Shown here: positions 1-40,403 of the stretch, in pieces
Position numbering within the stretch: position 1 is the stretch's first letter
Layout of the letters: the number at the start of each line of letters is the position of its first letter
From: a virus
Taxonomy: Duplodnaviria > Heunggongvirae > Uroviricota > Caudoviricetes
DNA length: 40,697 nucleotides
Virus record (IMG/VR): IMGVR_UViG_2541047891_000003
Strand: one strand, 5' to 3'
Position numbers and translations under genes: made by a program
The notes under the pieces: model-generated
What the model was told of the DNA's origin: nothing
Databases searched by the model: none
What the model saw: only the letters and a program-made list of their open reading frames with translations

Positions 1-468
1 ATGCCAGATCAAAAAGAAAGTGAGAACACCAAACTCACTTGTGAAGAACAAAAGGATAATGAACTGGTTTCTCGAGTAATCGAAAATCCAGAGGTCTTAA
101 ACAGGGTTTTGGATAGTCCGCAGGTGCGGGCTATTGTTTGCCAGCATTTTCAGGGGCCTGTTCCGCCACCTTCAATGCTTAAAAAGTATGATCAACTGGT
201 GCCTGGGCTTGCAAATCGACTTGTTGAGTTGACCGAAAAAGAGCAGGCTCATCGCCATAAAACAGTGGCTGATAGCATTGATATTGCCAGAGATGGTCAA
301 ACAAAGGCTTTTTGGTTGGCAATATTGATCATCTTAGCTGCCACTGTCTTTGGCGTCATGGGGGAGACAGTTCTTGCCGGAACTCTCGTTTCAATAGATC
401 TTGTTGCATTGGTTACGGCATTTATTGTTGGAAAACATTATTCTAAGCAGGAACCTGATCAAGATTAG
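1..468 (+). CDS. DUF2335-like small membrane protein (two C-terminal hydrophobic helices)
   Basis: 155-aa ORF with ATG start and a hydrophobic C-terminus (LAILIILAATVFGVMG...LVALVTAFIVG); family assignment from memory; followed by a hairpin plus T-run. Confidence 0.5.
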   Translation: MPDQKESENTKLTCEEQKDNELVSRVIENPEVLNRVLDSPQVRAIVCQHFQGPVPPPSMLKKYDQLVPGLANRLVELTEKEQAHRHKTVADSIDIARDGQTKAFWLAILIILAATVFGVMGETVLAGTLVSIDLVALVTAFIVGKHYSKQEPDQD

Positions 469-474
469 TCTCCG

Positions 475-500
475 AACCCCGGTTGATGCCGGGGTTTTTA
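475..500 (+). terminator. Rho-independent terminator candidate (CCCCGG-ttgatg-CCGGGG then TTTTT)
   Basis: 6-bp GC stem at 477-482/489-494 followed by T-run 495-499, directly after the stop codon at 466-468. Confidence 0.6.
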
Positions 501-544
501 CACTAGCAAAGCAATATCAACATTTTTCAGCTGTATTTATTTCG

Positions 545-1663
545 TCAAACAACCAATTTAACCCATTCCTGACCACGAGTATCGTTATAACGATCGGTGG
601 TTGCCTGGACTTTATGTCCCAGTAATGTTTTTGTATCAATACCCTGCGCGCGGTACAGTCGTTCTGACAGGGAGCGTTGTTCATGAAATGTTGGCGGAGT
701 TTTTCCTGCTGGTGGAGTTATCCCAGCCAGATCCCGTGCTTTGGCAAAGTAGTCGCTCAGGTTGTCTTTACTCATCGGCTTTGGTTGTTTCTGGTGCCGA
801 CTATGGATTAGATATGGACTTAATATTCTGTCTCGGCACCCATCAATAACTTCTTTTAACGTTATCCCAATGGCATCACAGCGTAGTGTAAGCGGTAACG
901 CCAGACGCATTCCGGTTTTTCCCTGGGTGATATGCAAGTGTTCGTTCCACACATCTGAAAAACGCATGTGGCAAATGTCATCACGGCGCTGACCAGTAAC
1001 AATCGCAAGGAGCATTGCGTTACGGATAAAGTGTTTTTCAGGCGTTGCGTTGTAAATTTTTTGCCAGTCTTCCAGGGTGAGCCTGGCTCTGGTTACTTTA
1101 GGGATCGGTTTACGGGTAGCCTCAGGAGGATTCCATCCAGGAGGAACTTCCCCTGCATGCTGTGCTTCTTTATAAATATCAACCCATAATCCGCGATTTA
1201 CTCGCGCTGTGCTGACCATGTCTTTATCCAGCCACTCATCCAGTATTAATGCAAAGTCTCTTACTTCCAGTTCTTTCAATGGGTGGTTTCCCAGACGGGA
1301 AACCAGGAATGCAGCCATTCGCGTTTTTTCTTTGTGGGTTGTAGCTGCAATATCTCCATTTTTCAGTCGCGTGTCTTGTATTTTCAGATATCGATCAACC
1401 CATGCCTTTAATCTAATACCCCGACGTTTTGTTGCTGACGGACTTTCATCAATTTTGCGCATGAAATATTCAGCTTCTGCTGCAGCTATTCGCTGATTGG
1501 CTGTGGAAGCGATTTTTTCTGCCTTACCTTTGTCTGTTCCGAGACCGTGAAATTTTCCAGTCACAGGGTTTTTATACTGGTAGTAAACTTTGCCAGTTCT
1601 GCGATCAAATTTTTCGTAAAGTCCGGCTACGTCAGTGCTGTTTTTTCGTGGCCTCGGTGACAT
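545..1663 (-). CDS. int: Tyrosine recombinase, lambda-family integrase
   Basis: 372-aa ORF; C-terminus PPTFHEQRSLSERLYRAQGIDTKTLLGHK...TTDRYNDTRGQEW matches the lambda Int catalytic region (HELRSL...LLGH...Y) as I recall it. Confidence 0.93.
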   Translation of the reverse strand: MSPRPRKNSTDVAGLYEKFDRRTGKVYYQYKNPVTGKFHGLGTDKGKAEKIASTANQRIAAAEAEYFMRKIDESPSATKRRGIRLKAWVDRYLKIQDTRLKNGDIAATTHKEKTRMAAFLVSRLGNHPLKELEVRDFALILDEWLDKDMVSTARVNRGLWVDIYKEAQHAGEVPPGWNPPEATRKPIPKVTRARLTLEDWQKIYNATPEKHFIRNAMLLAIVTGQRRDDICHMRFSDVWNEHLHITQGKTGMRLALPLTLRCDAIGITLKEVIDGCRDRILSPYLIHSRHQKQPKPMSKDNLSDYFAKARDLAGITPPAGKTPPTFHEQRSLSERLYRAQGIDTKTLLGHKVQATTDRYNDTRGQEWVKLVV

Positions 1664-1901
1664 GAGTTAAAATCTCCTTCAGTGCATCATCATCGCCAGT
1701 ATGAATTTCCGGCGCAATTCCCGTTTCACCAGGCCCAACAAATACTGCTCGGCGATCTATCAGCCAACGCCCACGAATTTTTTGTGGTCTTGGAACGATG
1801 TATCCTAGTTTTCCGTATTTCACCAGGGTAGTGTTTGTTATTGGGAGACTGAACCGTTTTGGTTTCCACTCGTCGAGCGTTATCAGGTACTGTTCGCTCA
1901 T
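1632..1901 (-). CDS. xis: Excisionase (Xis-like DNA-binding protein)
   Basis: Small ORF overlapping the int start; ATG at 1901 with GGAG 8 nt upstream (GTG at 1910 is the alternative); excisionase-like sequence and the typical position upstream of int. Confidence 0.75.
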   Translation of the reverse strand: MSEQYLITLDEWKPKRFSLPITNTTLVKYGKLGYIVPRPQKIRGRWLIDRRAVFVGPGETGIAPEIHTGDDDALKEILTHVTEATKKQH

Positions 1902-1962
1902 GGCTATCACTCCGGAACGCGCCAGTTGCAGAATATCAACGACAACTGGCGACGGTTGAACA

Positions 1963-5071: not shown

Positions 5072-5129
5072 AAAAAGGGCGGCAGAGCAGTCACGGAGTA
5101 AAACTGATACCGCCAAACGTCACCAGAAA
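5072..5129 (-). ncRNA. dicF: DicF small regulatory RNA (ftsZ-targeting sRNA)
   Basis: Minus-strand sequence TTTCTGGTGACGTTTGGCGGTATCAGTTTTACTCCGTGACTGCTCTGCCGCCCTTTTT matches the DicF sequence I recall; ends in a GC stem plus T-run; about 170 nt upstream of dicB as in Qin. Confidence 0.85.
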
Positions 5130-11468: not shown

Positions 11469-11679
11469 TTTTATACCTTTTGTGTTGTGTGAAGGAGCAG
11501 TATAGTCAGAAATGAGACAAGTGAAAGGGGATAGAAAGTAATAGTTTGTTTTTGTAGAATTGCTGCGGGTGCTTGAGGCTATCTGCCTCGGGCATGAACA
11601 CCAACGGCAGATAGAGAAAAGCCCCAGTTAACATTACGCGTCCGGCAAGACGCTTAACATTAATCTGAGGCATATCTGT

Positions 11680-11880
11680 ATGCGACACATAAAGATTAGC
11701 CTCTTAACAGTAAGAAATCAACTAACAGGGGGCTGTAATGCGAAGGAGCTATGTGTTTTGTCTGGTGGTGGTTTGCATCACCATTCTGATATTTGTCGGG
11801 ATGGTTCGCGGTTCGCTATGCGAGCTGCACATCAGGCAGGGAAACACAGAGCTTTCAGCGTATTTAGCCTACGAAGTTGA
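11680..11880 (+). CDS. mok: mok-like overlapping reading frame of a hok-family locus
   Basis: 66-codon ORF starting upstream of, and overlapping in another frame, the hok-like toxin ORF, as in hok/mok/sok loci. Confidence 0.4.
   Translation: MRHIKISLLTVRNQLTGGCNAKELCVLSGGGLHHHSDICRDGSRFAMRAAHQAGKHRAFSVFSLRS
11693..11721 (-). promoter_or_regulatory. sok: Candidate promoter for a Sok-like antisense RNA (minus strand: -35 TTGATT, 17-bp spacer, -10 TAATCT)
   Basis: Promoter-like hexamers on the minus strand positioned so the transcript would be complementary to the mok start region. Confidence 0.35.
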
Positions 11881-16051: not shown

Positions 16052-16127
16052 GGCCCTTTAGCTCAGTGGTGAGAGCGAGCGACTCATAATCGCCAGGTCG
16101 CTGGTTCAAATCCAGCAAGGGCCACCA
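16052..16127 (+). tRNA. ileZ: tRNA-Ile2 (anticodon CAU, lysidine type; could alternatively be tRNA-Met)
   Basis: Cloverleaf with acceptor GGCCCTT/AAGGGCC, anticodon loop CTCATAA, T-loop TTCAAAT, CCA end; close to E. coli ileX as I recall it. Confidence 0.8.
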
Positions 16128-16128
16128 A

Positions 16129-16205
16129 CCGCCACTAGCTCATCAGGAAAGAGCGTCAACCCTTTAAGTTGAGAGTGCGAGGTTCGAGTCCCCGGTGGCG
16201 GTCCA
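16129..16205 (+). tRNA. tRNA with atypical anticodon loop CCTTTAA (anticodon UUU = Lys if canonical; C at position 33)
   Basis: Acceptor CCGCCAC/GTGGCGG, D-arm GCTC..GAGC, anticodon stem TCAAC/GTTGA, T-loop TTCGAGT, CCA end; identity uncertain. Confidence 0.6.
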
Positions 16206-16207
16206 GT

Positions 16208-16283
<76 letters not shown>

Positions 16284-16286
16284 TAT

Positions 16287-16361
<75 letters not shown>

Positions 16362-24621: not shown

Positions 24622-25067
24622 TGGATTTCAGTCTTGATTTTTCCGGCCTGGCGGATATTGCACGGGATCTGGAGACGCTCAGCAGGGCAGAAAACAATAA
24701 GGTTCTGCGCGATGCCACCCGTGCCGGTGCTGAAGTTATGCGGGATGCAGTTGTTGAACGTGCGCCGGAGCGAACCGGGAAACTGAAGAAAAATGTGGTT
24801 GTTCTCACTCAGCGTTCAAAGCGTCGGGGGGAAATTATCTCGGGTGTCCACATTCGCGGACGGAACCTGCGAACCGGAAACAGTGATGACAGCATGAAAG
24901 CCAGCGATCCCCGAAATGCGTTTTACTGGCGCTTTGTGGAGCTGGGAACGATAAACATGCCCGCGCATCCATTCATTCGCCCGGCTTTCGATACGACAGA
25001 GGAGCTGGCGGCGCAGGTTGCCATACAGCGAATGAATCAGGCTATTGATGAGGTCTTAAGTAAATGA
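24618..25067 (+). CDS. HK97 gp10-like neck/tail completion protein
   Basis: 149-aa ORF overlapping its neighbours (ATGA). Confidence 0.6.
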   Translation: MMDFSLDFSGLADIARDLETLSRAENNKVLRDATRAGAEVMRDAVVERAPERTGKLKKNVVVLTQRSKRRGEIISGVHIRGRNLRTGNSDDSMKASDPRNAFYWRFVELGTINMPAHPFIRPAFDTTEELAAQVAIQRMNQAIDEVLSK

Positions 25068-25408
25068 GGGAGGCCACACTGTATTCCCTGCTGTCTCAGC
25101 TGGCCGGAGGACAGGTATATCCTTATGTGGTCCCGCTGACGGAGGGAAAGCCTGCGGTATCTCCGCCGTGGCTGGTGTTTTCTGTGGTGTCTGACACGGC
25201 GTCTGATGTGCTTGATGGTCAGGCTGAATCCAGAATTGTCGTGCAGATCGATGTCTGGGCGACGGTACCTGATGACGCAGATGATATTCGTGAGCAGGCG
25301 CTTGATGCAGTAAGGAAACTGGCACCTTCCGTTATTTCTAAAACGCAGGGTTATGATCCTGACTCCCGTCTGAGCAGAGCCACGCTTGAATTTCAGGTAA
25401 TAGCCTGA
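25064..25408 (+). CDS. Tail terminator-like protein (gp11/DUF3168-like)
   Basis: 114-aa ORF in conserved order. Confidence 0.55.
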   Translation: MREATLYSLLSQLAGGQVYPYVVPLTEGKPAVSPPWLVFSVVSDTASDVLDGQAESRIVVQIDVWATVPDDADDIREQALDAVRKLAPSVISKTQGYDPDSRLSRATLEFQVIA

Positions 25409-25429
25409 GGTCGTTAATGATTTTACCCA

Positions 25430-25450
25430 CCCGCCGCTGGCGGGTTTTTT
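25430..25450 (+). terminator. Hairpin plus T-run upstream of the major tail gene (CCCGCC-gct-GGCGGG then TTTTTT)
   Basis: GC stem followed by a T-run; the track ORF start at 25417 reads through it and is probably not real. Confidence 0.5.
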
Positions 25451-25467
25451 ATTTTCAGGAGACGAGT

Positions 25468-26172
25468 ATGTCCTCTAATTTTGAGCGTTCGCAACTGACG
25501 AAAATTATGATTTCGTCTGCACCGGTAACAGCAGAAACCCTGGATTCTGCCAGCTATCTTGGCCTGAGCTGTACAATCAAAGAGGTGCAGTTTACCGCAG
25601 GACAAAAGCAGGATATTGATGTCACCACGCTGTGTTCTGTTGAGCAGGAAAATATTAACGGTCTTGGTGCCGCGTCAGAGATTTCCATGTCAGGCAACTT
25701 TTACCTCAATGCTGCCCAGAACGCGTTGCGCAGTGCCTATGACAATGACACCACGTATGGCTTTAAAGTTATTTTTCCGTCAGGAAACGGATTTACCTTT
25801 ATGGCAGAGGTGCGTCAGCATACCTGGTCTGCAGGAACCAATGGTGTTGTGGCTGCAACGTTTTCCCTGCGCCTGAAAGGTAAACCTGTGCTGACGACAG
25901 AGCCGCTGAAAGTGAAGGTCGATTTAAACAGCACGCTGCAGGTTTCTGCCGGAGCGAAACTCGAAATGGTGGTTGAGGCTGCCGGTGGTGTGCCGCCTTA
26001 TTCTTATGTCTGGAAGAAAGGTAGTTCTCCTGTTTCCGGACAGACGGCGGCAACGTTCAGTAAGGCATCAGCAGCATCTGGTGATGCCGGTGCGTATACC
26101 TGCGAGATTTCTGATTCAGCAAGCCCGGTTAACAAAGTGACCTCCACTTCCTGCACTGTAACCGTCAGTTAA
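25468..26172 (+). CDS. V: Major tail protein (gpV-like) with C-terminal Ig-like domain
   Basis: ATG at 25468 with RBS CAGGAGACGAG upstream; C-terminal ~90 aa resembles a Big_2 Ig-like domain. Confidence 0.8.
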   Translation: MSSNFERSQLTKIMISSAPVTAETLDSASYLGLSCTIKEVQFTAGQKQDIDVTTLCSVEQENINGLGAASEISMSGNFYLNAAQNALRSAYDNDTTYGFKVIFPSGNGFTFMAEVRQHTWSAGTNGVVAATFSLRLKGKPVLTTEPLKVKVDLNSTLQVSAGAKLEMVVEAAGGVPPYSYVWKKGSSPVSGQTAATFSKASAASGDAGAYTCEISDSASPVNKVTSTSCTVTVS

Positions 26173-26558
26173 TGAGGATGGATGTGATGACTAAAAATAT
26201 CCGTAATCTGGCACTGGCAACGATGTCGGGGTTTCGCCATAAAACCGTTGATGTGCCTGAATGGGAGGGAGCAACGGTTGTATTACGGGAACCTTCTGCA
26301 GAAGCCTGGTTGCGCTGGCAGGAGATCGTTAAAGCCAGGGAAGATGATACATCGCCATCTGTTGCAGAGCGTGCCCGCCGAAATCTGGAGGCGGACGTTG
26401 AACTGTTCATTGATGTTCTGTGTGATACCGGACTGCAACCTGTATTTTCAGAGGATGATCGTGAACAGGTGATTGCCGTGTATGGCCCGGTGCATGCGCG
26501 GCTTCTTCGGCAGTCTCTGGAACTGATCAGTGATGCCGGAGAGGTTAAAAAAAAGTAG
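26172..26558 (+). CDS. G: Tail assembly chaperone G
   Basis: 128-aa ORF ending EVKKK-stop at a slippery A-rich run. Confidence 0.8.
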   Translation: MRMDVMTKNIRNLALATMSGFRHKTVDVPEWEGATVVLREPSAEAWLRWQEIVKAREDDTSPSVAERARRNLEADVELFIDVLCDTGLQPVFSEDDREQVIAVYGPVHARLLRQSLELISDAGEVKKK

Positions 26559-26860
26559 CGCTTCCGGGGATGCGTTTTCTGATGATGCTGGCGCTCAGGA
26601 TGGGGCGCACATTGTCAGAGTTACGCCGGGAAATGTCCGCATCAGAAATCATGATGTGGGCAGAATTTGACAGGTTCAGCCCGCTGGGAGACGAACGGGC
26701 TGATATCCGGGCTGCCCAGATTGTTTCAGCTGTTTACGGTGCGCAGGGGGTCAAAGTGCCACTGAATGATGCGCTTCTTCAGTGGGAGAAGGAGCAGACA
26801 GAAGGCGTATCAGATCCATTTGCCGGACTGGAAAACGCGCTTTTAATAGTGTCTCAGTGA
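26172..26860 (+). CDS. GT: Tail assembly chaperone G-T fusion made by programmed -1 ribosomal frameshift at A AAA AAG (26549-26555)
   Basis: Downstream ORF (to 26860) is in the -1 frame relative to G with no RBS of its own; slippery heptamer at the G 3' end. Confidence 0.7.
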
Positions 26861-26868
26861 GTCAACAT

Positions 26869-26891
26869 AACCGCTTCGGCGGTTTTTTTTT
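26869..26891 (+). terminator. Hairpin plus long T-run between T and the tape measure gene (CCGC-ttcg-GCGG then T9)
   Basis: Short GC stem with a 9-nt T-run; could equally be a regulatory or attenuating structure. Confidence 0.45.
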
Positions 26892-26901
26892 CGTCCGGAG
26901 A

Positions 26902-29900
26902 ATGAGTGTGGCGACATTACGTGAACTGATTATTAAAATCTCGGCAAATTCCCGGTCATTCCAGTCAGAGATCTCCCGGGCTTCGCGTATGGGGCAGGAT
27001 TACTACCGTACCATGCAGAACGGAGGCCGGCAGTCCGCTGCTGCATCCCGTGAAATGCGGCGTGCACTGGCAGAAGTGACGGATCAGATAAATACAGCTA
27101 AATCTTCGGCACTGAATATGGCGGGGGCATTTGCCGGGGCTTTTGCTACCGGTCATCTTATTTCTCTCGCCGATGAGTGGAATTCAGTAAATGCCCGTCT
27201 GAAGCAGGCCTCACAGTCCAGTGATGATTTTCAGGCATCACAGCGTGAATTAATGGCGATCAGCCAGAGAACGGGGACGGCGTTTTCTGATAACGCCAGC
27301 CTTTTTGCCCGTTCTGCAGCTTCCATGCGGGAGTATGGTTACAGTTCTGAGGAGGTACTGAAAGTCACCGAGGCGATCTCCACGGGCCTGAAATTATCCG
27401 GTGCCAGTACAGCAGAAGCCAGTTCGGTGATCACGCAGTTCAGTCAGGCACTGGCGCAGGGAGTGCTGCGCGGTGAAGAGTTTAACTCGGTGAATGAGAA
27501 CGGCGATCGTGTTATTCGTGCGCTGGCTGCGGGAATGGGGGTTGCCCGTAAGGATCTGAAGGCCATGGCGGATAACGGAAAGTTGACCGCCGATAAGGTT
27601 GTTCCTGCACTGATTAGTCAGCTTGGGGCATTACGTGATGAATATGCGGCAATGCCTGATACGGTTTCATCCTCTGCAACCAAAGTTGAAAACGCCTTTA
27701 TGGCCTGGGTTGGTGGTGCGAACGAGGCAAGCGGAGTGACGAAGACGCTCTCCGGTGTGCTGAATGGTATTGCAGGCAATATTGACACTGTGGCAACCGC
27801 TGCCGGTGCTCTGGTTGCCGTCGGGGTAGCCCGATATTTTGGCAATATGGCGTCTTCTGCTGGATCTGCAACTGCCGGATTAATTACTGCAGCCAGAAAC
27901 GAAGTGGCTCTTGCGGAAGCGCAGCTCCGGGGGACACAGATAGCAACAGCCAGGGCGCGTGCGGCGGTTTATCGTGCGCAACAGGCGGTTGTTGCTGCTC
28001 GCGGTACCGAAAGGCAGGCAGCCGCAGAAGCGAAACTGGCTGCTGCCCAGGCATCACTTACCCGTAATATTGCGGCCAGAACAGCAGCACAGACAACGCT
28101 GAATACTGTCACGTCAGTGGGAAGTCGTCTGTTAAGTGGAGCACTGGGACTGGTTGGTGGGGTGCCGGGGCTTGTCATGCTGGGGGCCGCGGCCTGGTAC
28201 ACGATGTATCAGAATCAGGAGCAGGCCAGAGAATCTGCACGCCAGTATGCCGCAACAATCGACGAAATTCGCCAGAAAACGTCGGCAATGTCGCTTCCTG
28301 AAGCGTCAGATAATGAGGAAAAGACGCGGCAGGCACTGGAGGAACAAAATCGCCTGATTAGCGAACAGGAAGGAAAAATTCGCGGACTGAAAAATCAAAT
28401 TGCTGATTATCAACGTTGGCTTGATGAAAGTTCGCAGAGTGGTTCGGGTGCTGAAATCATCCTTAAAGGGCTTGCCGAAGCAACAAATCAACTGGCAGTT
28501 GAACAATCCCGTCTCACTCAAATGCAGGGCAAAGCGCAATCTATTCAGGATGTGCTTGCCGGGCTGGAGGAGCGACGGGTGGCGTTGATCCGTCAACAGG
28601 CGGCGGAACAAAACAAAGCGTATCAGTCCCTGTTGATCATGAATGGGCAGCATACCGAGTTTAATCGCCTTCTTGGGCTTGGTAATGAATTACTTCAGCA
28701 GCGACAGGGGCTGGTGAATGTACCGTTACGGCTACCACAGGCAACCCTGGATGATAAACAGCAGACCGCACTGAATAACAGCAAGCGCGAACTGGCTCTG
28801 TCCCGCCTTAAGGGGGAAGCGCGTGAGCGTGCCCGACTGGGCTATGCTGCGGATGATCTCGGCTTTGTGGGAGAGGCGTATCAGACAGCCAGACAGAATT
28901 ATATCAATAACTCACTGGATGCCTGGCGAAATAACCAGGCAAATAAACCCAAAACGCATAAAAAGACCGAAGCGGAAAAAACAGAAGATATTTATAAACG
29001 GCTGATTAAACAGCAAAAAGAACAGATAGCACTGGCAGGGCAGAATACTGAACTGGCTAAGATGAAATATCAGGTCAGTCAGGGCGAATTATCAACCTTA
29101 TCAGAAGCGCAGAAACAAACCCTTTTACAGAATGCAGCACTCATCGACCAGAAAAAAATTCGTGAGCAAATTGCTGCTTATGAAAGCAGCCTGGCGGACA
29201 GTAACGCCAGTGTCAGGGCATCAAATGAGGCTCAGTTGTTAGGGTATGGAGACGGAACACGAATACGTGAGCGGCTTCAGGAAATGTGGAACATCCGACA
29301 GGAGTTTGAGCAGAAAAATAATGAGTTGCTGAGACAGTACCAGACCGGAGAAATCGAAGAAGCCCTGTGGAAACAGGAAAAAACGCTGAATGAAAAATAT
29401 CTGGAGGAGCGTCTCAACGATCAGCAGGATTATTATGCAAAGGCCGATGCTTTACGCAGTAACTGGAATGCCGGGCTCAAAGAGGGGCTGACGAACTGGG
29501 CAGACAGTGCCACTGATTATGCTTCACAAGCGGCAGATGCGGTCGTTTCCACTATGGATGGTCTGGTTTCAAATATTTCTGAGGCACTGGCCGGAAACGT
29601 TGTGGACTGGAGAAACTGGGGGAGTTCGATCCTTCAGGAAGTTTCAAAAATCCTGATGAACGCGGCAATTGTTAACGGGCTGAAATCACTCTCCGGGACA
29701 ATGTCGGGAGCGGGGGGATGGATTGGTAGTGTTGGCGACTGGCTTTCCGGTGCAGTAGCGAACGCAAAAGGCGGTGTTTACACATCGGCAAATCTGAGTG
29801 CTTACAGTAACACCATTGTGGACACGCCGACGTACTTTGCTTTTGCGAAAGGTGCCGGGCTGATGGGGGAAGCCGGACCTGAAGCTATCATGCCGCTTAC

Positions 29901-30120
29901 GCGGGCAGCGGACGGTTCTCTTGGGGTCAGGGCTATTGGCAATGTGAATGGTGGTGGCGGATTTGTCTATTCTCCCGTGTATCACATCAATATTCAGAAT
30001 AAAGGGAGCAATGGCGAGATTGATACGCAGTCAGCCAGGGGGCTGGTGGATCTGATCGACAGCAGGGTTGTGTCAATTATGCAGTCATCACGTCGGGACG
30101 GAGGATTATGCAGTGCCTGA
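26902..30120 (+). CDS. H: Tail tape measure protein (gpH-like)
   Basis: About 1070-aa Ala/Gln-rich coiled-coil protein; ATG at 26902; the track ORF start at 26782 overlaps the T frame. Confidence 0.85.
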   Translation: MSVATLRELIIKISANSRSFQSEISRASRMGQDYYRTMQNGGRQSAAASREMRRALAEVTDQINTAKSSALNMAGAFAGAFATGHLISLADEWNSVNARLKQASQSSDDFQASQRELMAISQRTGTAFSDNASLFARSAASMREYGYSSEEVLKVTEAISTGLKLSGASTAEASSVITQFSQALAQGVLRGEEFNSVNENGDRVIRALAAGMGVARKDLKAMADNGKLTADKVVPALISQLGALRDEYAAMPDTVSSSATKVENAFMAWVGGANEASGVTKTLSGVLNGIAGNIDTVATAAGALVAVGVARYFGNMASSAGSATAGLITAARNEVALAEAQLRGTQIATARARAAVYRAQQAVVAARGTERQAAAEAKLAAAQASLTRNIAARTAAQTTLNTVTSVGSRLLSGALGLVGGVPGLVMLGAAAWYTMYQNQEQARESARQYAATIDEIRQKTSAMSLPEASDNEEKTRQALEEQNRLISEQEGKIRGLKNQIADYQRWLDESSQSGSGAEIILKGLAEATNQLAVEQSRLTQMQGKAQSIQDVLAGLEERRVALIRQQAAEQNKAYQSLLIMNGQHTEFNRLLGLGNELLQQRQGLVNVPLRLPQATLDDKQQTALNNSKRELALSRLKGEARERARLGYAADDLGFVGEAYQTARQNYINNSLDAWRNNQANKPKTHKKTEAEKTEDIYKRLIKQQKEQIALAGQNTELAKMKYQVSQGELSTLSEAQKQTLLQNAALIDQKKIREQIAAYESSLADSNASVRASNEAQLLGYGDGTRIRERLQEMWNIRQEFEQKNNELLRQYQTGEIEEALWKQEKTLNEKYLEERLNDQQDYYAKADALRSNWNAGLKEGLTNWADSATDYASQAADAVVSTMDGLVSNISEALAGNVVDWRNWGSSILQEVSKILMNAAIVNGLKSLSGTMSGAGGWIGSVGDWLSGAVANAKGGVYTSANLSAYSNTIVDTPTYFAFAKGAGLMGEAGPEAIMPLTRAADGSLGVRAIGNVNGGGGFVYSPVYHINIQNKGSNGEIDTQSARGLVDLIDSRVVSIMQSSRRDGGLCSA

Positions 30121-30454
30121 ACCTGAAGTTTTTAACTGGATCCCCCGCGAGGGGATGGAGACGACACGAAAGCCATCTGTTATTACAGTAAAGTTCGGTG
30201 ACGGATATGAACAGCGACGGGCTGGTGGTCTGAATGCGGATCTGAAAACCTTTAAACCGGTATTTCGTGTCACAGATGAATATTCCCGCGCCGCGCTGGA
30301 CAGTTTTTTATCCCGTCATGCCGGGATGCGTGCTTTTTTGTGGCGCCCGCCAAAACACAACAGGACTGTCAGGGTTGTCTGCAGGGAGTGGAGTACTTCG
30401 GATAATGCCATGTATACCGATTTTAACTGTACCTTTGAAGAGGTCACTCACTGA
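30113..30454 (+). CDS. M: Minor tail protein M
   Basis: Similar to lambda gpM (VRFGDGYSQR-like motif); GTG at 30113 with GGAGG 9 nt upstream; ATG at 30155 is the alternative start. Confidence 0.8.
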   Translation: MPEPEVFNWIPREGMETTRKPSVITVKFGDGYEQRRAGGLNADLKTFKPVFRVTDEYSRAALDSFLSRHAGMRAFLWRPPKHNRTVRVVCREWSTSDNAMYTDFNCTFEEVTH

Positions 30455-31152
30455 TGCAGGATATACAACAGGAAACACTGAATGAGTGTACAAAAGCGGA
30501 GCAATCCGCACTGGTCGTGCTCTGGGAAGTCGATCTGACAGAAGTCGGTGGCGAGCGTTATTTTTTCTGTAATGAGCAGAACGAAAAAGGTGAGTCAGTC
30601 ACCTGGCAGGGGCGGCAGTATCAGGCGTATCCCATTCAGGGGAGCGGATTTGAGATGAACGGCAAAGGAGCCAGTGCCAGACCAACACTGAAAGTATCTA
30701 ATCTGCACGGTATGGTCACCGGTATGGCGGAAGATCTGCAGAGTCTGGTCGGCGGAACGGTGGTCCGGCGTAAGGTTTACGCCCGTTTTCTGGATGCGGT
30801 GAACTTCGTCAACGGAAACAGCGACGCCGATCCGGAGCAGGAGGTGATCAGTCGCTGGCGCATCGAGCAGTGCAGCGAACTGAGCGCGGTCAGTGCCTCC
30901 TTTGTACTGTCCACGCCGACGGAAACGGACGGCGCTGTTTTTCCGGGACGTATCATGCTGGCCAACACCTGCACCTGGACCTATCGCGGTGATGAGTGCG
31001 GTTATAACGGTCCGGCTGTCGCGGATGAATATGACCAGCCGACGTCCGATATCACGAAGGATAAATGCAGCAAATGCCTAAGCGGCTGTAAGTTTCGCAA
31101 TAACGTCGGCAACTTTGGAGGCTTCCTTTCCATTAACAAACTTTCGCAGTAA
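30454..31152 (+). CDS. L: Minor tail protein L
   Basis: 232-aa ORF matching lambda gpL by order and sequence recall. Confidence 0.85.
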   Translation: MQDIQQETLNECTKAEQSALVVLWEVDLTEVGGERYFFCNEQNEKGESVTWQGRQYQAYPIQGSGFEMNGKGASARPTLKVSNLHGMVTGMAEDLQSLVGGTVVRRKVYARFLDAVNFVNGNSDADPEQEVISRWRIEQCSELSAVSASFVLSTPTETDGAVFPGRIMLANTCTWTYRGDECGYNGPAVADEYDQPTSDITKDKCSKCLSGCKFRNNVGNFGGFLSINKLSQ

Positions 31153-31157
31153 ATCCC

Positions 31158-31901
31158 ATGACAGAGACAGAATCAGCGATTCTGGCGCACGCCCGGCGAT
31201 GTGCGCCAGCGGAGTCGTGCGGCTTCGTGGTGAGAACGCCGGAGGGGGAAAGATATTTTCCCTGCGTGAATATCTCCGGTGAGCCGGAGGATTATTTCCG
31301 GATGTCGCCGGAGGACTGGCTGCAGGCAGAAATGCAGGGTGAGATTGTGGCGCTGGTCCACAGTCATCCCGGTGGTCTGCCCTGGCTGAGTGAGGCTGAC
31401 CGACGGCTGCAGGTGCAGAGTGATTTGCCATGGTGGCTGGTCTGCCGGGGGGCGATTCATAAGTTCCGCTGTGTGCCGCATCTCACCGGGCGGCGCTTTG
31501 AGCACGGGGTGACGGACTGTTACACGCTGTTCCGGGATGCTTACCATCTGGCGGGGATTGAGATGCCGGATTTTCATCGCGGGGATGACTGGTGGCGTAA
31601 CGGTCAGAATCTCTATCTTGACAATATGGAGGCAACGGGTTTTTACCGTGTCGCACTGACAGAGACGCAGCCGGGCGATGTGCTGCTGTGCTGCTTTGGT
31701 TCATCGGTGCCGAATCATGCCGCCATTTACTGTGGTGACGGCGAGCTGCTGCACCATATTCCTGAACAACTGAGCAAACGAGAGAGGTATACCGACAAAT
31801 GGCAGCGACGCACACACTCCCTCTGGCGTCACCAGGCATGGCTCGCATCTGCCTTTACGGGGATTTACAACGATTTGGCCGCCGTATCGACCTTCGTGTG
31901 A
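31158..31901 (+). CDS. K: Tail assembly protein K (MPN/JAB plus NlpC/P60 domains)
   Basis: 247-aa ORF; HSHP motif for the JAB domain and a Cys/His NlpC/P60-like region. Confidence 0.85.
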   Translation: MTETESAILAHARRCAPAESCGFVVRTPEGERYFPCVNISGEPEDYFRMSPEDWLQAEMQGEIVALVHSHPGGLPWLSEADRRLQVQSDLPWWLVCRGAIHKFRCVPHLTGRRFEHGVTDCYTLFRDAYHLAGIEMPDFHRGDDWWRNGQNLYLDNMEATGFYRVALTETQPGDVLLCCFGSSVPNHAAIYCGDGELLHHIPEQLSKRERYTDKWQRRTHSLWRHQAWLASAFTGIYNDLAAVSTFV

Positions 31902-32446
31902 AAACGGGAGCCGAAGCTATCCGGGCACTGGCCACACAGCTCCCGGCGTTTCGTCAGAAACTGAATGACGGCTGGTATCAGGTGCGCATTGCCGGGCGTG
32001 ATGCAGGCGAAAACGAATTATCTGCCCGTCTTAATGAATCGCTGGCAAATGGTGCCGTGATCCACATCGTGCCGCGTCTGGCGGGAGCTAAAAGTGGCGG
32101 TGTGTTTCAGGTGGTGCTGGGGGCGGCGCTGATTGCGGTGGCATGGTGGAACCCTGTGGGCTGGCTGGGTGCCGCGGCTGTATCGGGCATGTATGCGGCA
32201 GGGGCCAGTATGATCCTGGGCGGTGTGGCGCAGATGCTGGCACCGAAAGTCAGAACTCCCCGCACACAGACAACGGATAACGGCAAACAGAACACGTATT
32301 TCTCCTCGCTGGATAACATGGTTGCCCAGGGGAATGTTCTGCCCGTTCTGTACGGTGAAATGCGCGTGGGGTCACGCGTGGTATCTCAGGAGATCAGCAC
32401 GGCAGACGAAGGGGATGGTGGTCAGGTTGTGGTGATTGGTCGATGA
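31799..32446 (+). CDS. I: Tail assembly protein I
   Basis: MAATHTLPLASPGMARICLYGDLQRFGRRIDLRV... is nearly identical to lambda gpI as I recall it. Confidence 0.85.
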   Translation: MAATHTLPLASPGMARICLYGDLQRFGRRIDLRVKTGAEAIRALATQLPAFRQKLNDGWYQVRIAGRDAGENELSARLNESLANGAVIHIVPRLAGAKSGGVFQVVLGAALIAVAWWNPVGWLGAAAVSGMYAAGASMILGGVAQMLAPKVRTPRTQTTDNGKQNTYFSSLDNMVAQGNVLPVLYGEMRVGSRVVSQEISTADEGDGGQVVVIGR

Positions 32447-32506
32447 TGCAAAATATTTTATGTGAAACCGCCTCCGGGCGGTTTTGTCGTTTATGGAGCA
32501 TGACGA

Positions 32507-35500
32507 ATGGGTAAAGGCAGCAGTAAGGGGCATACCCCGCGCGAAGCGAAGGACAACCTCAAATCCACGCAGTTGCTGAGTGTGATCGATGCCATCAGTG
32601 AAGGGCCGGTTGAAGGTCCGGTGGATGGCTTAAAAAGCGTGCTGCTGAACAGTACACCGGTGCTGGACAGTGAGGGGAATACCAACATCTCCGGCGTCAC
32701 GGTGGTGTTCCGGGCAGGTGAGCAGGAGCAGACTCCGCCGGAGGGATTTGAATCCTCAGGCTCCGAGACGGTGCTGGGTACGGAAGTGAAATATGACACG
32801 CCGATCACCCGGACCATCACGTCGGCAAACATCGACCGTCTGCGCTTTACCTTCGGTGTGCAGGCTCTGGTGGAAACCACCTCAAAGGGGGACAGGAATC
32901 CGTCGGAAGTCCGCCTGCTGGTTCAGATACAGCGTAACGGTGGCTGGGTGACGGAAAAAGACATCACCATTAAGGGCAAAACCACCTCGCAGTATCTGGC
33001 CTCGGTGGTGGTGGGTAACCTGCCGCCGCGCCCGTTCAATATCCGGATGCGCAGGATGACGCCGGACAGCACCACAGACCAGCTGCAGAACAAAACGCTC
33101 TGGTCGTCATACACCGAAATCATCGATGTGAAACAGTGCTACCCGAACACGGCACTGGTCGGCGTGCAGGTGGACTCGGAGCAGTTCGGCAGCCAGCAGG
33201 TGAGCCGTAATTATCATCTTCGCGGGCGCATTCTGCAGGTGCCGTCGAACTATAACCCGCAGACGCGGCAATACAGCGGTATCTGGGACGGAACGTTTAA
33301 GCCAGCATACAGCAACAACATGGCCTGGTGTCTGTGGGATATGCTGACCCACCCGCGCTACGGCATGGGGAAACGTCTTGGTGCGGCGGATGTGGACAAA
33401 TGGGCGCTGTATGTCATCGGCCAGAATTGTGACCAGTCGGTGCCGGACGGCTTTGGTGGCACGGAGCCGCGCATCACCTGTAATGCCTACCTGACCACAC
33501 AGCGTAAGGCGTGGGATGTTCTCAGTGATTTCTGCTCGGCGATGCGCTGTATGCCGGTATGGAACGGGCAGACGCTGACGTTCGTGCAGGACCGACCGTC
33601 GGATAAGGTGTGGACCTATAACCGCAGTAATGTGGTGATGCCGGATGATGGCGCGCCGTTCCGCTACAGCTTCAGCGCCCTGAAAGACCGCCATAATGCC
33701 GTTGAGGTGAACTGGATTGACCCGAACAACGGCTGGGAGACGGCGACAGAGCTTGTGGAGGATACGCAGGCCATTGCCCGTTACGGTCGTAACGTCACGA
33801 AGATGGATGCTTTTGGTTGTACCAGCCGGGGGCAGGCACACCGCGCCGGGCTGTGGCTGATTAAAACAGAACTGCTGGAAACGCAGACCGTGGACTTCAG
33901 CGTGGGCGCAGAAGGGCTTCGCCATGTACCGGGCGATGTCATTGAAATCTGTGATGATGACTATGCCGGTATCAGCACCGGTGGTCGCGTGCTGGCGGTG
34001 AACAGCCAGACCCGGACGCTGACGCTCGACCGTGAAATCACGCTGCCATCCTCCGGTACCACGCTGATAAGCCTGGTTGACGGAAGTGGTAATCCGGTCA
34101 GCGTGGAGGTTCAGTCCGTCACCGACGGACTTAAGGTGAAAGTGAACCGTGTTCCTGACGGCGTTGCAGAATACAGTGTGTGGGGGCTGAAGTTGCCGAC
34201 GTTGCGTCAGCGCCTGTTCCGCTGTGTGAGTATCCGTGAGAACGATGACGGCACGTATGCCATCACTGCCGTGCAGCATGTACCGGAAAAAGAAGCCATC
34301 GTGGATAACGGGGCGCACTTTGACGGCGACCAGAGCGGCACGGTGAATGGTGTCACGCCGCCAGCGGTGCAGCACCTGACCGCCGAAGTCACCGCAGACA
34401 GCGGGGAATATCAGGTGCTGGCGCGCTGGGACACGCCGAAGGTGGTGAAGGGCGTGAGCTTCCTGCTCCGTCTGACCGTAACAGCGGATGACGGCAGTGA
34501 GCGGCTGGTCAGCACGGCCCGGACGACGGAAACCACATACCGATTCACGCAACTGGCGCTGGGGAACTACAGGCTGACAGTCCGGGCGGTAAATGCGTGG
34601 GGGCAGCAGGGCGATCCGACGTCGGTATCGTTCCGGATTGCCGCACCGGCAGCACCGTCGAGGATTGAGCTGACGCCGGGCTATTTTCAGATAACCGCCA
34701 CGCCGCATCTTGCCGTTTATGACCCGACGGTACAGTTTGAGTTCTGGTTCTCGGAAAAGCGGATTACCGATATCAGGCAGGTTGAAACCACAGCCCGCTA
34801 TCTTGGTACGGCGCTGTACTGGATAGCCGCCAGTATCAATATCAAACCGGGCCATGATTATTACTTTTATATCCGCAGTGTGAACACCGTTGGCAAATCG
34901 GCATTCGTGGAGGCCGTCGGTCGGGCGAGCGATGATGCGGAAGGTTACCTGGATTTTTTCAAAGGCAAGATAACCGAATCCCATCTCGGCAAGGAGCTGC
35001 TGGAAAAAGTCGAGCTGACGGAGGATAACGCCAGCAAACTGGAGGAGTTTTCGAAAGAGTGGAAGGACGCCAACGATAAATGGAATGCCATGTGGGGCGT
35101 CAAAATTGAGCAGACCGAAGACGGCAGGCATTATGTCGCGGGGCTTGGCCTCAGCATGGAGGATACGGAGGAAGGCAAACTGAGCCAGTTCCTGGTTGCC
35201 GCTAACCGTATCGCGTTTATTGATCCGTCTAATGGCAACACGCGACCAATGTTTGTTGGTCAGGGCGATCAGATATTCATGAACGACGTGTTCCTGAAGC
35301 GTCTGACGGCCCCGACCATCACCAGCGGCGGTAATCCTCCTGCATTTTCCCTGACGCCGGACGGGCGGCTGACGGCGAAAAATGCCGATATCAGCGGTAA
35401 CGTGAATGCGAACTCCGGGACGCTCAACAACGTCACGATTAACGAGAACTGTCGGGTTCTGGGAAAACTGTCCGCGAACCAGATTGAAGGCGATCTCGTT

Positions 35501-35902
35501 AAAACAGTGGGCAAAGCTTTCCCCCGGGACTCCCGTGCTCCGGAGCGGTGGCCATCAGGGACCATTACCGTCAGGGTTTATGACGATCAGCCGTTTGACC
35601 GGCAAATTGTTATTCCAGCGGTGGCTTTCAGCGGCGCCAGACATGAGCGGGAGAATAGCGATACTTATTCGTCATGTCGCCTGATAGTGAAGAAAAACGG
35701 GGCTGAAATTTATAACCGAACGGCTCTGGATAATACTCTGATTTACACAGGTGTTATTGATATGCCTGCAGGCAGTGGCGTAATGACACTGGAGTTTTCT
35801 GTATCAGCATGGTGGGTAAATAACTGGTATCCCACAGCAAGTATCAGCGATTTGCTGGTTGTTGTGATGAAGAAAGCTACTGCAGGCATCACGATTAGCT
35901 GA
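32507..35902 (+). CDS. J: Host specificity protein J (central tail fibre)
   Basis: 1131-aa ORF, very close to lambda gpJ through most of its length by recall. Confidence 0.9.
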
Positions 35903-35921
35903 ATTTTATAACCCAGATACG

Positions 35922-35946
35922 GGCGCCAGAAATGGCGCCTTTTTTA
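35922..35946 (+). terminator. Rho-independent terminator after J (GGCGCC-agaaat-GGCGCC then TTTTTT)
   Basis: Perfect 6-bp GC stem followed by a T-run. Confidence 0.7.
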
Positions 35947-35969
35947 TTGCAGAAAAGCGAGAGGTAATT

Positions 35970-36569
35970 ATGCGTAAATTATGTGCTGTTATTCTGTCCG
36001 CAGTAGTCTGGCTGGTTGCCGCTGGTACGCCAGCGAGCGCAGCAGAGCATCAGTCCACACTAAGCGCCGGGTATCTTCAGACCCATACTGATATGCCAGG
36101 CAGCGATGACCTGAAGGGCATTAACGTGAAATACCGTTATGAGTTTACGGACACGCTGGGGCTGGTGACGTCATTCAGTTATGCCAATGCCAAAGATGAG
36201 CAAAAAACGCATTACAGCGATACCCGCTGGCATGAAGATTCAGTGCGTAATCGCTGGTTCAGCGTGATGGCGGGGCCGTCTGTACGCGTGAATGAATGGT
36301 TCAGTGCTTATGCGATGGCGGGTGTGGCTTACAGCCGTGTTTCGACTTTCTCCGGGGATTATCTCCGCGTAACTGACAACAAGGGGAAAACGCACGATGT
36401 GCTGACCGTAAGTGATGACGGTCGCCACAGCAACACGTCTCTGGCATGGGGGGCTGGCGTGCAGTTTAACCCGACCGAATCCGTGGCCATTGACCTTGCT
36501 TATGAAGGTTCCGGCAGTGGCGACTGGCGCACTGAAGGTTTCATCGTGGGTGTCGGTTATAAATTCTGA
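35970..36569 (+). CDS. lom: Lom outer-membrane protein (Ail/PagC family beta-barrel)
   Basis: 199-aa ORF with a signal peptide, near-identical to lambda Lom by recall; ends in aromatic F. Confidence 0.9.
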   Translation: MRKLCAVILSAVVWLVAAGTPASAAEHQSTLSAGYLQTHTDMPGSDDLKGINVKYRYEFTDTLGLVTSFSYANAKDEQKTHYSDTRWHEDSVRNRWFSVMAGPSVRVNEWFSAYAMAGVAYSRVSTFSGDYLRVTDNKGKTHDVLTVSDDGRHSNTSLAWGAGVQFNPTESVAIDLAYEGSGSGDWRTEGFIVGVGYKF

Positions 36570-36596
36570 TTAGCCAGGTAACACAGTGTTATGACA

Positions 36597-36622
36597 GCCC
36601 GCAGATTCTGGCGGGCTTTTTT
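36597..36622 (+). terminator. Rho-independent terminator after lom (GCCCGC-agattctg-GCGGGC then TTTTTT)
   Basis: 6-bp GC stem followed by a T-run. Confidence 0.7.
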
Positions 36623-36633
36623 GTGGAGTGGAT

Positions 36634-39033
36634 ATGGCAGCAGTAAAAATCTCTGGTGTGCTGAAAGATGGTGCGGGAAAACCAATACAAAACTGCACTA
36701 TTCAGCTCAAAGCAAAGCGTAACAGTACCACGGTACTGGTGAACACGGTGGCCTCTGAAAATCCGGATGAAGCCGGACGTTACAGCATGGATGTCGAGTA
36801 TGGCCAGTACAGCGTCGCCCTGCTGGTTGAAGGTTTTCCGCCTTCACATGCCGGGACCATTACCGTCTATGAAGGTTCCAGACCAGGTACGCTGAATGAT
36901 TTTCTCGGTGCCATGACGGAAGATGATGTCATGCCGGAGGCATTGCGTCGTTTTGAGGCAATGGTGGAAGAAGTGGCACGCAACGCCGAAGCCGCCTCTC
37001 AGAGCGCAGCGGCGGCAAAGAAATCCGAAACTGCAGCGGCATCATCGAAGAACGCGGCGAAAACCTCAGAAACGAATGCAGCTAATAGTGCACAGGCGGC
37101 AGCGGCCTCGCAGACTGCATCGGCAAACTCCGCGACAGCAGCCAAAAAATCAGAAACCAACGCGAAAAACAGCGAGACAGCCGCAAAGACGAGCGAAACC
37201 AACGCAAAGTCCAGCCAGACGGCAGCGAAAACCAGCGAAACGAATGCCAAAGTCAGTGAAACTGCAGCGAAAAATAGCCAGGCTGCAGCAGCCGAAAGCG
37301 AGAGCGCGGCAGCCGGTTCTGCGACTTCAGCAGCCGGATCAGCAACTGCTGCGGCTAACAGTCAGAAAGCAGCGAAGACGAGCGAAACCAACGCAAAGTC
37401 CAGCCAGACGGCAGCGAAGACCAGCGAAACGAATGCTAAAGCCAGCGAAACTGCGGCGAAAAACAGCCAGGCTGCAGCAGCCGAAAGCGAGAGTGCCGCA
37501 GCTGGTTCTGCAAGTGCGGCGGCTGCTTCTGCCACTGCATCAGCCAACAGTCAAAAAGCTGCAAAAACCAGTGAAACCAACGCAAAGGCGAGCGAGACTG
37601 CTGCGGCTAACTCGGCGAAAGCATCCGCTGCAAGCCAGACGGCTGCAAAAGCAAGTGAAGACGCAGCCAGAGAGTATGCAAGCCAGGCTGCGGAGCCGTA
37701 TAAACAAGTTTTGCAGCCGCTTCCCGATGTGTGGATACCGTTTAACGATTCACTGGATATGATTACGGGCTTTTCGCCGTCATATAAAAAGATTGTTATT
37801 GGTGATGATGAAATAACGATGCCTGGCGATAAGGTTGTAAAGTTTAAACGCGCATCAACTGCCACATATATCAATAAATCAGGCGTATTTAGTGTTGCTA
37901 AAATTGATGAGCCACGATTTGAAAAAGAAGGTTTATTGATTGAAGGACAGCGCACTAACTATTTTGTTAAATCCAATACCCCCGCTGAATGGACGAGTAC
38001 CAGCAATATCGATAAAACTAATAATGGTGTTGATGAATTTGGTTTTTCATATGCCAAAATGCGAGCAAAAGATAATATGACAGGACAATCATCTGCACTT
38101 AGTCTGCATACATGCAGTGCATCCCGGGGGATTGATGTTAGTGGCGATAATAAGTATTGCACTGTTTCATGCAGGGTTAAAGCTCCTGATGGTCTTCGTT
38201 GTCGTTTGCGTTTTGAAAAATACGATGGATCGGTTTATACATTTTTAGGAGATGCTTATTTAACTTTCGGAACTCTGATAATAGAAAAAACTGGCGGAGC
38301 AGCCAATAGAATAGCAGCTACTGCAACTAAAGATCCGGTTACAGGGTGGATTTTCTATGAGGCAACTATAGAAGCTGTTGAAGGTGAAACCTTAATTGGC
38401 GCAATGATTCAGTATGCGCCGAAAAAAGGTGGTGTAACTGAAGCGGGAGATTATATTTACCTTGCAACACCACAATTTGAAAACGGCGGATGTGCTTCAT
38501 CTTTTGTTATTACGACAACTGCACCCGCAACCCGCTCTAGTGATATGGTGACGATCCCAACTGAAAATAATATCTATAATAGACCGCTTACGTGTCTGGT
38601 CGAGGTTAATAGAAATTGGGGCGATATTCCTCCTAATGTAGCACCGCGTATTTTTGATTTTTCTGGTGTGCCACCTATTGAGTCAATTACATACGCTTTT
38701 AACACAACTGAGAAATATTACGGTCAGCTTTATATGCAAACTTATAAAGCGTCGACAAGTACTTACGTTTCTAGTGTGTTTGCTGGTCGAACTGATGTTC
38801 GAAAATTCATTGGTGGTTTTAATATTTATTCTGATGGTACTAAACGAGTAGTTTCTAACGGTGAGGCTACTAAAACTATGAAAACGGAGTGGACGGGCGT
38901 AAAAACACGGACCTTTATTCGAATTGGAGGTCAAGCCACATCAGGAACTCGTCATCTATTCGGCCATTTGAGAAATCTTCGTCTCTGGCATAAAGAATTA
39001 ACTGATGCGCAAATGGGGGAGAGTATTAAATGA
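36634..39033 (+). CDS. stf: Side tail fibre protein (Stf-like N-terminus, repeat-rich Ala/Ser/Thr shaft, divergent C-terminal receptor-binding region)
   Basis: N-terminus MAAVKISGVLKDGAGKPIQNCTIQLKAKRNSTT matches lambda Stf by recall; tandem KTSETNAK-type repeats; AT-rich C-terminal ~450 aa unlike lambda Stf. Confidence 0.8.
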   Translation: MAAVKISGVLKDGAGKPIQNCTIQLKAKRNSTTVLVNTVASENPDEAGRYSMDVEYGQYSVALLVEGFPPSHAGTITVYEGSRPGTLNDFLGAMTEDDVMPEALRRFEAMVEEVARNAEAASQSAAAAKKSETAAASSKNAAKTSETNAANSAQAAAASQTASANSATAAKKSETNAKNSETAAKTSETNAKSSQTAAKTSETNAKVSETAAKNSQAAAAESESAAAGSATSAAGSATAAANSQKAAKTSETNAKSSQTAAKTSETNAKASETAAKNSQAAAAESESAAAGSASAAAASATASANSQKAAKTSETNAKASETAAANSAKASAASQTAAKASEDAAREYASQAAEPYKQVLQPLPDVWIPFNDSLDMITGFSPSYKKIVIGDDEITMPGDKVVKFKRASTATYINKSGVFSVAKIDEPRFEKEGLLIEGQRTNYFVKSNTPAEWTSTSNIDKTNNGVDEFGFSYAKMRAKDNMTGQSSALSLHTCSASRGIDVSGDNKYCTVSCRVKAPDGLRCRLRFEKYDGSVYTFLGDAYLTFGTLIIEKTGGAANRIAATATKDPVTGWIFYEATIEAVEGETLIGAMIQYAPKKGGVTEAGDYIYLATPQFENGGCASSFVITTTAPATRSSDMVTIPTENNIYNRPLTCLVEVNRNWGDIPPNVAPRIFDFSGVPPIESITYAFNTTEKYYGQLYMQTYKASTSTYVSSVFAGRTDVRKFIGGFNIYSDGTKRVVSNGEATKTMKTEWTGVKTRTFIRIGGQATSGTRHLFGHLRNLRLWHKELTDAQMGESIK
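37186..37563 (+). repeat. Tandem direct repeat, 2 x 189 bp (63-aa units), inside stf, flanked by degenerate copies
   Basis: Near-identical units starting at about 37186 and 37375; encoded peptide KTSETNAKSSQTAAKTSETNAK.SETAAKNSQAAAAESESAAAGSA... Confidence 0.75.
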
Positions 39034-39311: not shown

Positions 39312-39320
39312 GGAAGAAAA

Positions 39321-40361: not shown

Positions 40362-40367
40362 TATTAA

Positions 40368-40390
40368 GGGGCCGAGCGCCCCGTTTTATT
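40368..40390 (+). terminator. Terminator candidate (GGGGC-cgagc-GCCCC then GTTTTATT)
   Basis: 5-bp GC stem followed by a T-rich stretch after the fibre gene. Confidence 0.5.
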
Positions 40391-40403
40391 GGGTAGGATG
40401 AAA

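Follow-up and report, generated by a model that had tools for sequence, protein, structure and literature searches.

A prophage window that begins at a DUF2335 gene: a predicted attachment site at the potB/potC junction, outside the window, and a moron-like gene pair beside the integrase

Where does a prophage end when its sequence begins exactly at the start codon of an accessory gene? This question is raised by the viral DNA (Caudoviricetes) of the IMG/VR record IMGVR_UViG_2541047891_000003, whose whole stretch of 40,697 nucleotides is called the window here, and in which a gene with a DUF2335 domain at the extreme left end is separated from a lambda-type integrase gene (int) by a short gap. 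A sequence-only reading of this DNA had proposed that the left attachment site (attL) lies in or next to that gap, or else that the prophage carries the DUF2335 gene as cargo and truly ends to the left of the window. Our analysis supports the latter proposal, as the window is very probably a cropped inner part of a lambdoid prophage that occupies the potB/potC junction in Escherichia coli, with DUF2335 as accessory cargo. The structural part of this reading (the position of the attachment site and the cargo status of the gene) is considered slightly more certain still, and a functional guess far less so.

The attachment site could be located in related genomes. The VG48B2 locus (L002) shows 99.7% identity to the window across window positions 1–1200, a window position equals the L002 position minus 12000, and the gene order is potD, potC, a 204-bp hypothetical open reading frame (ORF), DUF2335, int, xis and exo; the same order is present in UMNK88 and SMN013SH2. 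In K-12, potB is found directly after potC, whereas in VG48B2 it is found on the far side of the prophage. A three-way alignment of the K-12 bacterial site (attB) with attL and the right attachment site (attR) of VG48B2 gave a sole shared block, the 14-bp common core CACCTTCTTATTCA, and immediately past this core potB resumes at the VG48B2 attR. The core falls within the final potB codons, a stretch that also forms the ribosome-binding region of potC and immediately precedes the start of this gene, and exact matches were obtained at L002 11520–11533, L005 14743–14756, L001 2847–2860 and, for K-12, L004 2630–2643. In window coordinates the L002 core equals −480 to −467, and within the window the core was not found, even when up to one mismatch was allowed. 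The predicted attL is outside the window, approx. 470–480 bp to the left of position 1; the potC start together with the core, read as GATCATTCGAGTTCCACCTT(C/T)TTATTCA, would sit circa 470–495 bp upstream of that position. Several attL copies (L003, L010, L011, L012 and L017) contain a one-base variant of the core, CACCTTTTTATTCA, as opposed to CACCTTCTTATTCA in attB; this variant may be the phage allele of the core, and the strand-exchange (overlap) region could have its left limit at this polymorphism.

A query that extends from potC to int separates the genomes in the same manner: empty-site genomes match bases 1–94 only, with the end of the match at the right core edge, lysogens that lack the cassette of the DUF2335 gene match bases 1–201, and at least 80% of the query is matched in 210 of 5,426 genomes. 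Upon integration the last potB codons are replaced; at attR the phage sequence completes the gene, and the annotated PotB has 287 amino acids (aa) in the lysogen (L005 14725–15588) vs. 275 aa in K-12 (L004 2618–3445). A side observation is that the prophage splits potAB from potCD, and that expression of potCD in the lysogen may depend on transcription from the phage end. It is already known that potC is an insertion site of prophages and Shiga toxin (Stx) phages (PMC8065619, PMC10925052). The potC prophages of Shiga toxin-producing E. coli (STEC) and of other E. coli have the same integration locus and integrase family as the prophage discussed here, but most of them are without the DUF2335 cassette. 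The cassette-bearing potC prophage of SMN013SH2 is longer than 50 kb and contains genes of type III secretion system effectors (NleG family, EspW) at its far end (L074 1–1900).

To the right of the core stands a 106-bp P′ arm (−466 to −361), which is 94% identical between cassette-bearing and cassette-less prophages, and after it the cassette of approx. 0.9 kb (−360 to 543) stands in place of the 37-bp spacer of the cassette-less relatives; in the global alignment, the distance from the end of the P′ arm to the int stop is 904 bp with the cassette and 37 bp without it. The P′ arm contains the motif TCYCCAAAAY three times in tandem (L002 11581–11614, 48–81 bp from the core), and three copies were reached in none of 100 shuffles. 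One more copy in the same orientation is present in the P arm of attR, 116–125 bp from the core, while no further copy was found in the circa 109 kb examined and none is in the window. We take these repeats to be predicted arm-type Int sites. Their layout to the left of the cassette mirrors the arm sites of lambda and indicates that the predicted functional attachment region would be complete without the cassette.

The attachment region of lambda contains the P′1–P′3 and P1/P2 arm sites. Similarly to lambda attP and attL, a short common core is shared here by attB, attL and attR, three tandem repeats are found 48–81 bp from the core on the int side with one copy circa 120 bp away on the other arm, and the lambda Arm DNA-binding domain is present in the integrase, whose gene overlaps the xis gene next to it. 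Unlike in lambda, the core has 14 bp and is situated inside a gene (the 3′ end of potB), which the phage re-completes with a different C-terminus, and a 0.9-kb cassette lies between the P′ arm and int, with the int end approx. 1 kb from the core instead of approx. 150 bp.

The distribution of the cassette agrees with cargo status. In the megablast results, homology of approx. 1,400 complete E. coli genomes with a 97%-identical int starts at window position 540 or 545, and in these cassette-less genomes int is located circa 165 bp from potC; homology through the DUF2335 gene was obtained in 209–210 genomes. This is a presence/absence polymorphism at one position, with 210 genomes carrying the cassette and approx. 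1,400 lacking it beside an int that is 97% identical. Window positions 1–539 are present in 211 genomes (full-length in 210) and absent from 5,215 of the 5,426; the segment to the left of 540 is linked to this int in 210 of its 211 carriers, and the order potC, small ORF, DUF2335, int and xis was found at every locus inspected. The records vB_EcoS-640R1 and 813R8 contain a 97.7%-identical int-xis-exo region adjoining potC, and with their host flanks they are prophages. Since the cassette-less relatives keep the 106-bp P′ arm, which here stands to the left of the cassette, the break at 540 is, judged from these alignments, a boundary between cargo and backbone and not a host/phage junction. The initial reading of this break, a core that overlaps the 3′ end of int, was dropped, since in VG48B2 the cassette is preceded on its left by potC, the core and the P′ arm.

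The left end of the window contains the following features (coordinates, strand, description and evidence):

1–23, plus strand: last 23 nt of the 67-aa small ORF, including its TGA stop (annotation in relatives)
1–468, plus strand: DUF2335 gene, 155 aa (Pfam PF10097, phrog_3996, conservation in alignment A3, AlphaFold 2 (AF2) model)
474–483 and 488–497 (stem), with loop TGAT and T run 495–499, plus strand: intrinsic-terminator-like hairpin (folding)
500–543, no strand: spacer and right-hand boundary of the cassette, with homology to cassette-less potC prophages restarting at 540–544 (megablast, global alignment blocks)
545–1663, minus strand: lambda-type tyrosine integrase, 372 aa (PF09003, PF00589)
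1632–1910, minus strand: excisionase, overlapping the int start (PF07825; excisionase annotation in related genomes)

The integrase matches PF09003 (Arm-DNA-bind_1, E = 1.4e-21) and PF00589 (Phage_integrase, E = 3.8e-19) in Pfam, the excisionase ORF matches PF07825 (Exc, E = 7.8e-05), and a large exonuclease gene comes after int-xis in the window. The sequence-only reading described a DUF2335-like gene with a terminator beside int, which is confirmed by the ORF at 1–468, by PF10097 and by the hairpin with T run at 474–499; it was also right that the gap is short, although the distance from the DUF2335 stop to the int stop (469–544) is 76 bp and not 77 bp as it had stated. The hairpin at 474–497 has a 10-bp stem with six G–C pairs and a folding energy of −20.5 kcal/mol (z = −3.6), and none of 200 shuffles folded equally well. 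It is absent from the list of a simple terminator scan, which we explain by a stem count that took in two of the five T's. The 76-bp gap should carry the label of a cassette terminator, not of an attachment site.

As for the window edges, the 5′ edge is exactly the ATG of the DUF2335 gene and the 3′ edge is exactly a stop codon (40695–40697), and the same ATG is the start of approx. 30 IMG/VR prophage calls. Because of this, the edge is a gene-boundary crop and not a biological end, i.e., a cropping artefact that is uninformative on the true prophage end. Prophage calls that are cropped at gene boundaries can cut through their own accessory cassette, and here an overlapping gene pair was split.

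The cassette would be composed, in order, of a promoter-like site, a Shine-Dalgarno (SD) sequence, the 67-aa ORF, the DUF2335 gene and an intrinsic terminator. A sigma-70-like promoter match (TTGAAA-18 nt-TAGAAT, 10 of 12 consensus positions) is located upstream of the window in L002; three genomic contexts that differ from one another have the −10 element TATTAGAAT and the SD/ATG without any change, and homology between these contexts starts only around the −35 element. The sequence AGGAG precedes the 67-aa ORF (L002 11820–12023), which is annotated as a hypothetical protein in VG48B2, UMNK88 and SMN013SH2, has its first 180 nt to the left of the window and overlaps the start of DUF2335 by 23 nt in another frame. 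In the promoter spacer there is a perfect 15-bp palindrome, ACCACATAATGTGGT (L002 11741–11755, window −259 to −245), which is partly kept (CACAT..TGTG) in Salmonella tail-end copies and absent from nin-region copies; this palindrome may be an operator.

A GC hairpin followed by a T run is found 3′ of the DUF2335 stop in most other contexts inspected, including the Staphylococcus phage, and was not evident in L071/L072, L060 and L009. In strain A8 (L003 5800–6890), the same slot between the P′ arm and int contains the small ORF, an internally deleted DUF2335 remnant with the hairpin staying directly after it and, on the opposite strand, an ORF6N anti-repressor-like gene. As the A8 slot additionally carries this anti-repressor-like gene, the interval from the P′ arm to int is a site with variable cargo. 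ORF6N is directly after DUF2335 in the Salmonella tail-end copies, too. The candidate promoter would be active in the lysogen, the cassette would be transcribed towards int, and its terminator would stop antisense transcription into int.

Lambdoid morons are autonomous promoter–gene–terminator units (e.g., lom and bor of lambda, gp15 of HK97), reportedly described by Juhala et al. in 2000 and Cumby et al. in 2012. Considering its anatomy of promoter-like site, small ORF, DUF2335 and terminator, the cassette would be a classic moron. Like the lambdoid morons, it is present or absent among near-identical phages, has its own promoter-like site and terminator, can oppose the orientation of its neighbours, occurs at the att/int end, at the tail-fibre end and in the nin region, and belongs to the moron category of PHROGs. 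Unlike them, it consists of two translationally overlapping genes, and these are without sequence relationship to the characterised morons.

The DUF2335 ORF matches PF10097 at aa 55–89 (E = 1e-12, 48.1 bits vs. a cut-off of 25), its homologues obtain 38–71 bits against the same model, and it also matches phrog_3996 ('membrane protein', moron category, E = 6.5e-43). Its hydrophilic N-terminal part includes the conserved block FQGPVPPP..ML..Y....PGLANRLVELTEKEQ.HRH (alignment A3), while the C-terminal hairpin consists of two hydrophobic helices (approx. aa 103–121 and 123–144) with basic residues on both outer sides. The sequence argues for a membrane hairpin with both termini inside (N-in/C-in), and the AF2 model is all-helical, with a predicted local distance difference test (pLDDT) score of circa 84 only for aa 100–140. 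Two other matches were rejected as sub-threshold, i.e., PD-T4-6 for the DUF2335 protein itself (E = 0.002, 15.6 bits, 49 aa of a 354-position model) and the holin family PF07332 for the membrane part of one distant homologue (E = 0.0031). In the literature on DUF2335 no functional data were found. The domain has been called Tle1-like or a phospholipase toxin domain, and these mentions presumably arose by confusion with DUF2235; a DUF2335 gene is also recorded among pathogenicity-related mutants of Dickeya.

The small ORF is a near-obligate partner of DUF2335. Partner ORFs align across E. coli, Salmonella, metagenomic contigs and the phages IME-SA4 and MD8, and share the motif GS(I/V)L.L.P ... 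SD.EAL..D..A.G.D(F/L). Such an ORF was found in 23 of the 25 loci that were fetched with DUF2335 and had upstream sequence, and DUF2335 was located downstream, usually overlapping, in all ten loci fetched with the partner. When 1.84 billion cluster representatives, with each 50%-identity cluster represented once, were scanned with the partner profile, 1,119 were retrieved, nearly all of 55–80 aa. The family matches no Pfam, NCBIfam or PHROG model, and the longer proteins with the partner motif, which were checked for informative fusions, contained none.

The gene pair adjoins int in E. coli potC phages, in Staphylococcus phage IME-SA4, in Pseudomonas phage MD8 and in a Pseudomonas P2-like prophage, and it is found at other accessory positions in phages of Salmonella, Serratia, Klebsiella, Pseudomonas and Staphylococcus. 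In Salmonella one position is at the prophage end, after the gene for tail-fibre assembly, and another is in the nin region, where the pair is beside HicAB/HigB and oriented against its neighbours. Further positions are downstream of the Q antiterminator (L049) and, in P22- or epsilon15-like prophages, close to genes for tailspike and Bro-N.

It can be supposed that the two proteins would form a complex at the cytoplasmic membrane, in which a small soluble partner would be joined to a membrane protein of two helices whose N-terminal domain would be cytoplasmic. Due to the position, autonomy, membrane location and neighbours of the pair, our tentative guess, which we would sooner expect to fail than to hold, is that the complex may protect the lysogen, e.g., by superinfection exclusion or abortive infection, as other morons adjacent to att/int do. 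Known examples of exclusion or defence beside int are the lactococcal membrane proteins of the Sie2009 type and the defence genes of mycobacteriophage integration cassettes, and RexAB of lambda is a two-gene pair of membrane and cytoplasmic proteins. Like these, the pair stands beside att/int in several hosts, includes a small membrane protein and possibly has two components, and HicAB, HigB and other accessory genes adjoin it in Salmonella; unlike in a family relationship, no homology connects these genes to the pair, and the comparison only means that the pair may work like them. 

Three other explanations of the locus have to be considered. If attL were situated in the 76-bp gap (469–544) or at the int stop, DUF2335 would be host DNA or part of a neighbouring island outside the prophage, and indeed the abrupt start of homology at 540/545 in comparison with the approx. 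1,400 genomes with a 97% int resembles a host/phage junction, while lambda-type cores normally lie within approx. 100–150 bp of the int stop. However, the segment 469–544 is without a repeat anywhere in the window (exact matches do not exceed 12 nt, a chance-level length that is reached on the opposite strand, so the direct repeat that the sequence-only reading had suggested to search for was not found there), and the segment to the left of 540 is not found without this int at potC. The P′ arm that abuts int in cassette-less prophages stands here between the core, which it adjoins, and the cassette to its right, and the hairpin belongs to the cassette, as it is kept in the A8 remnant and has analogues after DUF2335 elsewhere. 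At the empty sites (K-12 and thousands more), potB comes right after the core without DUF2335, which also speaks against host DNA beyond the gap, since window positions 1–539 are not present there. We therefore give this explanation almost no credence, and the earlier placement of attL in or next to 469–544 is refuted and replaced by the predicted core to the left of position 1. What held from that reading is its other option, cargo with a true end to the left of the window, in agreement with the P′ arm and core left of the cassette and the int linkage described above; conservation of the DUF2335 gene inside related prophages, which it had named as a sign against attL in the gap, was indeed observed.

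The cassette could also have been left behind by another element, which would have been a tandem prophage in the same attB or a small mobile element of independent nature, as compound prophages are present at potC in some STEC (PMC10925052), the cassette occurs in several unrelated genomic contexts, and the content of the A8 slot differs (ORF6N anti-repressor-like gene and a deleted DUF2335). This seems very improbable, because the stretch between the P′ arm and int contains no further copy of either the core or the arm motif, the cassette comes without an integrase, a transposase or terminal repeats, its limits vary by context with homology only from around the −35 element, and the arrangement is constant in 210 genomes. 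Finally, the cassette might be cargo that serves the phage itself, by modulating int through the terminator or a convergent transcript (similar to sib/retroregulation), or by encoding a membrane protein for lysis or DNA entry. The cassette does converge on int with its terminator 45 bp from the int stop, the pair is found among tail or late genes in some phages, and the below-cut-off holin match of the distant homologue would fit as well. Nevertheless, the cassette is missing from most relatives that share this int (approx. 1,400 vs. 210), so it is dispensable for the control of integration, the same pair with its own promoter-like site and terminator is found far from any int, and on the int-sense strand the hairpin is without a following T run; we consider this very improbable.

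Several points weigh against our interpretation of the window as the interior of a potC prophage with an accessory gene pair. No complete E. coli genome covers at least 80% of the first 25 kb of the window, and the potC location is assigned by analogy with the 210 genomes that share the junction, which the window's own flanks would match. Among cassette-bearing genomes, attR was verified in VG48B2 only, where the prophage is degraded, and no virion or circular phage genome with the cassette was found in the phage collection searched. The arm motif was derived from the three P′ repeats themselves, with the single P-arm copy as the only independent match, and the promoter is a consensus match of which shuffles of the region give 2.3 on average, with no enrichment of promoter-like matches over these shuffles. 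Regarding the proteins, AF2 modelled both as helical with low confidence (pLDDT 61), a PDB profile search gave no PDB relative, there is no NCBIfam match, and in PADLOC-DB v2 no meaningful match was obtained, with none at all for the small ORF.

Other elements of the window were also recorded. The DicF antisense small RNA was found at 5077–5128 on the minus strand (Rfam RF00039, 76.7 bits), which is part of the early-left region and close to a dicB-like position, and the sok antitoxin RNA of a hok/sok-type locus at 11567–11740 on the plus strand (Rfam RF01794, 98.2 bits). Four tRNA genes (Met-CAT, Lys-TTT, Thr-TGT and Gly-TCC) are located at 16052–16361 on the plus strand according to ARAGORN and Rfam. 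The tail-fibre ORF (36628–39033, plus strand) contains a long Ala/Ser/Thr-rich repeat region (AAKTSETNAK...), and the distal tail-fibre module (25001–40697) is closest to prophages at other sites such as yecD, which points to mosaicism.

In the end, the question of the attachment site is an ordinary one and is resolved by a known potC site, a lambda-like attachment anatomy and DUF2335 as cargo, with the general lesson that a sharp homology break next to int can mean a cargo boundary, not a host junction. The wider interest lies only in the conserved pair, a compact unit from promoter-like site to terminator which recurs at accessory positions in distant hosts. It is possible, although we would not rely on it, that the small ORF and DUF2335 represent an undescribed and widespread two-component module of temperate phages, which may be expressed from the prophage and may exclude or abort superinfecting phages at the membrane, and the pair is a cheap candidate for a phage-exclusion cloning test.

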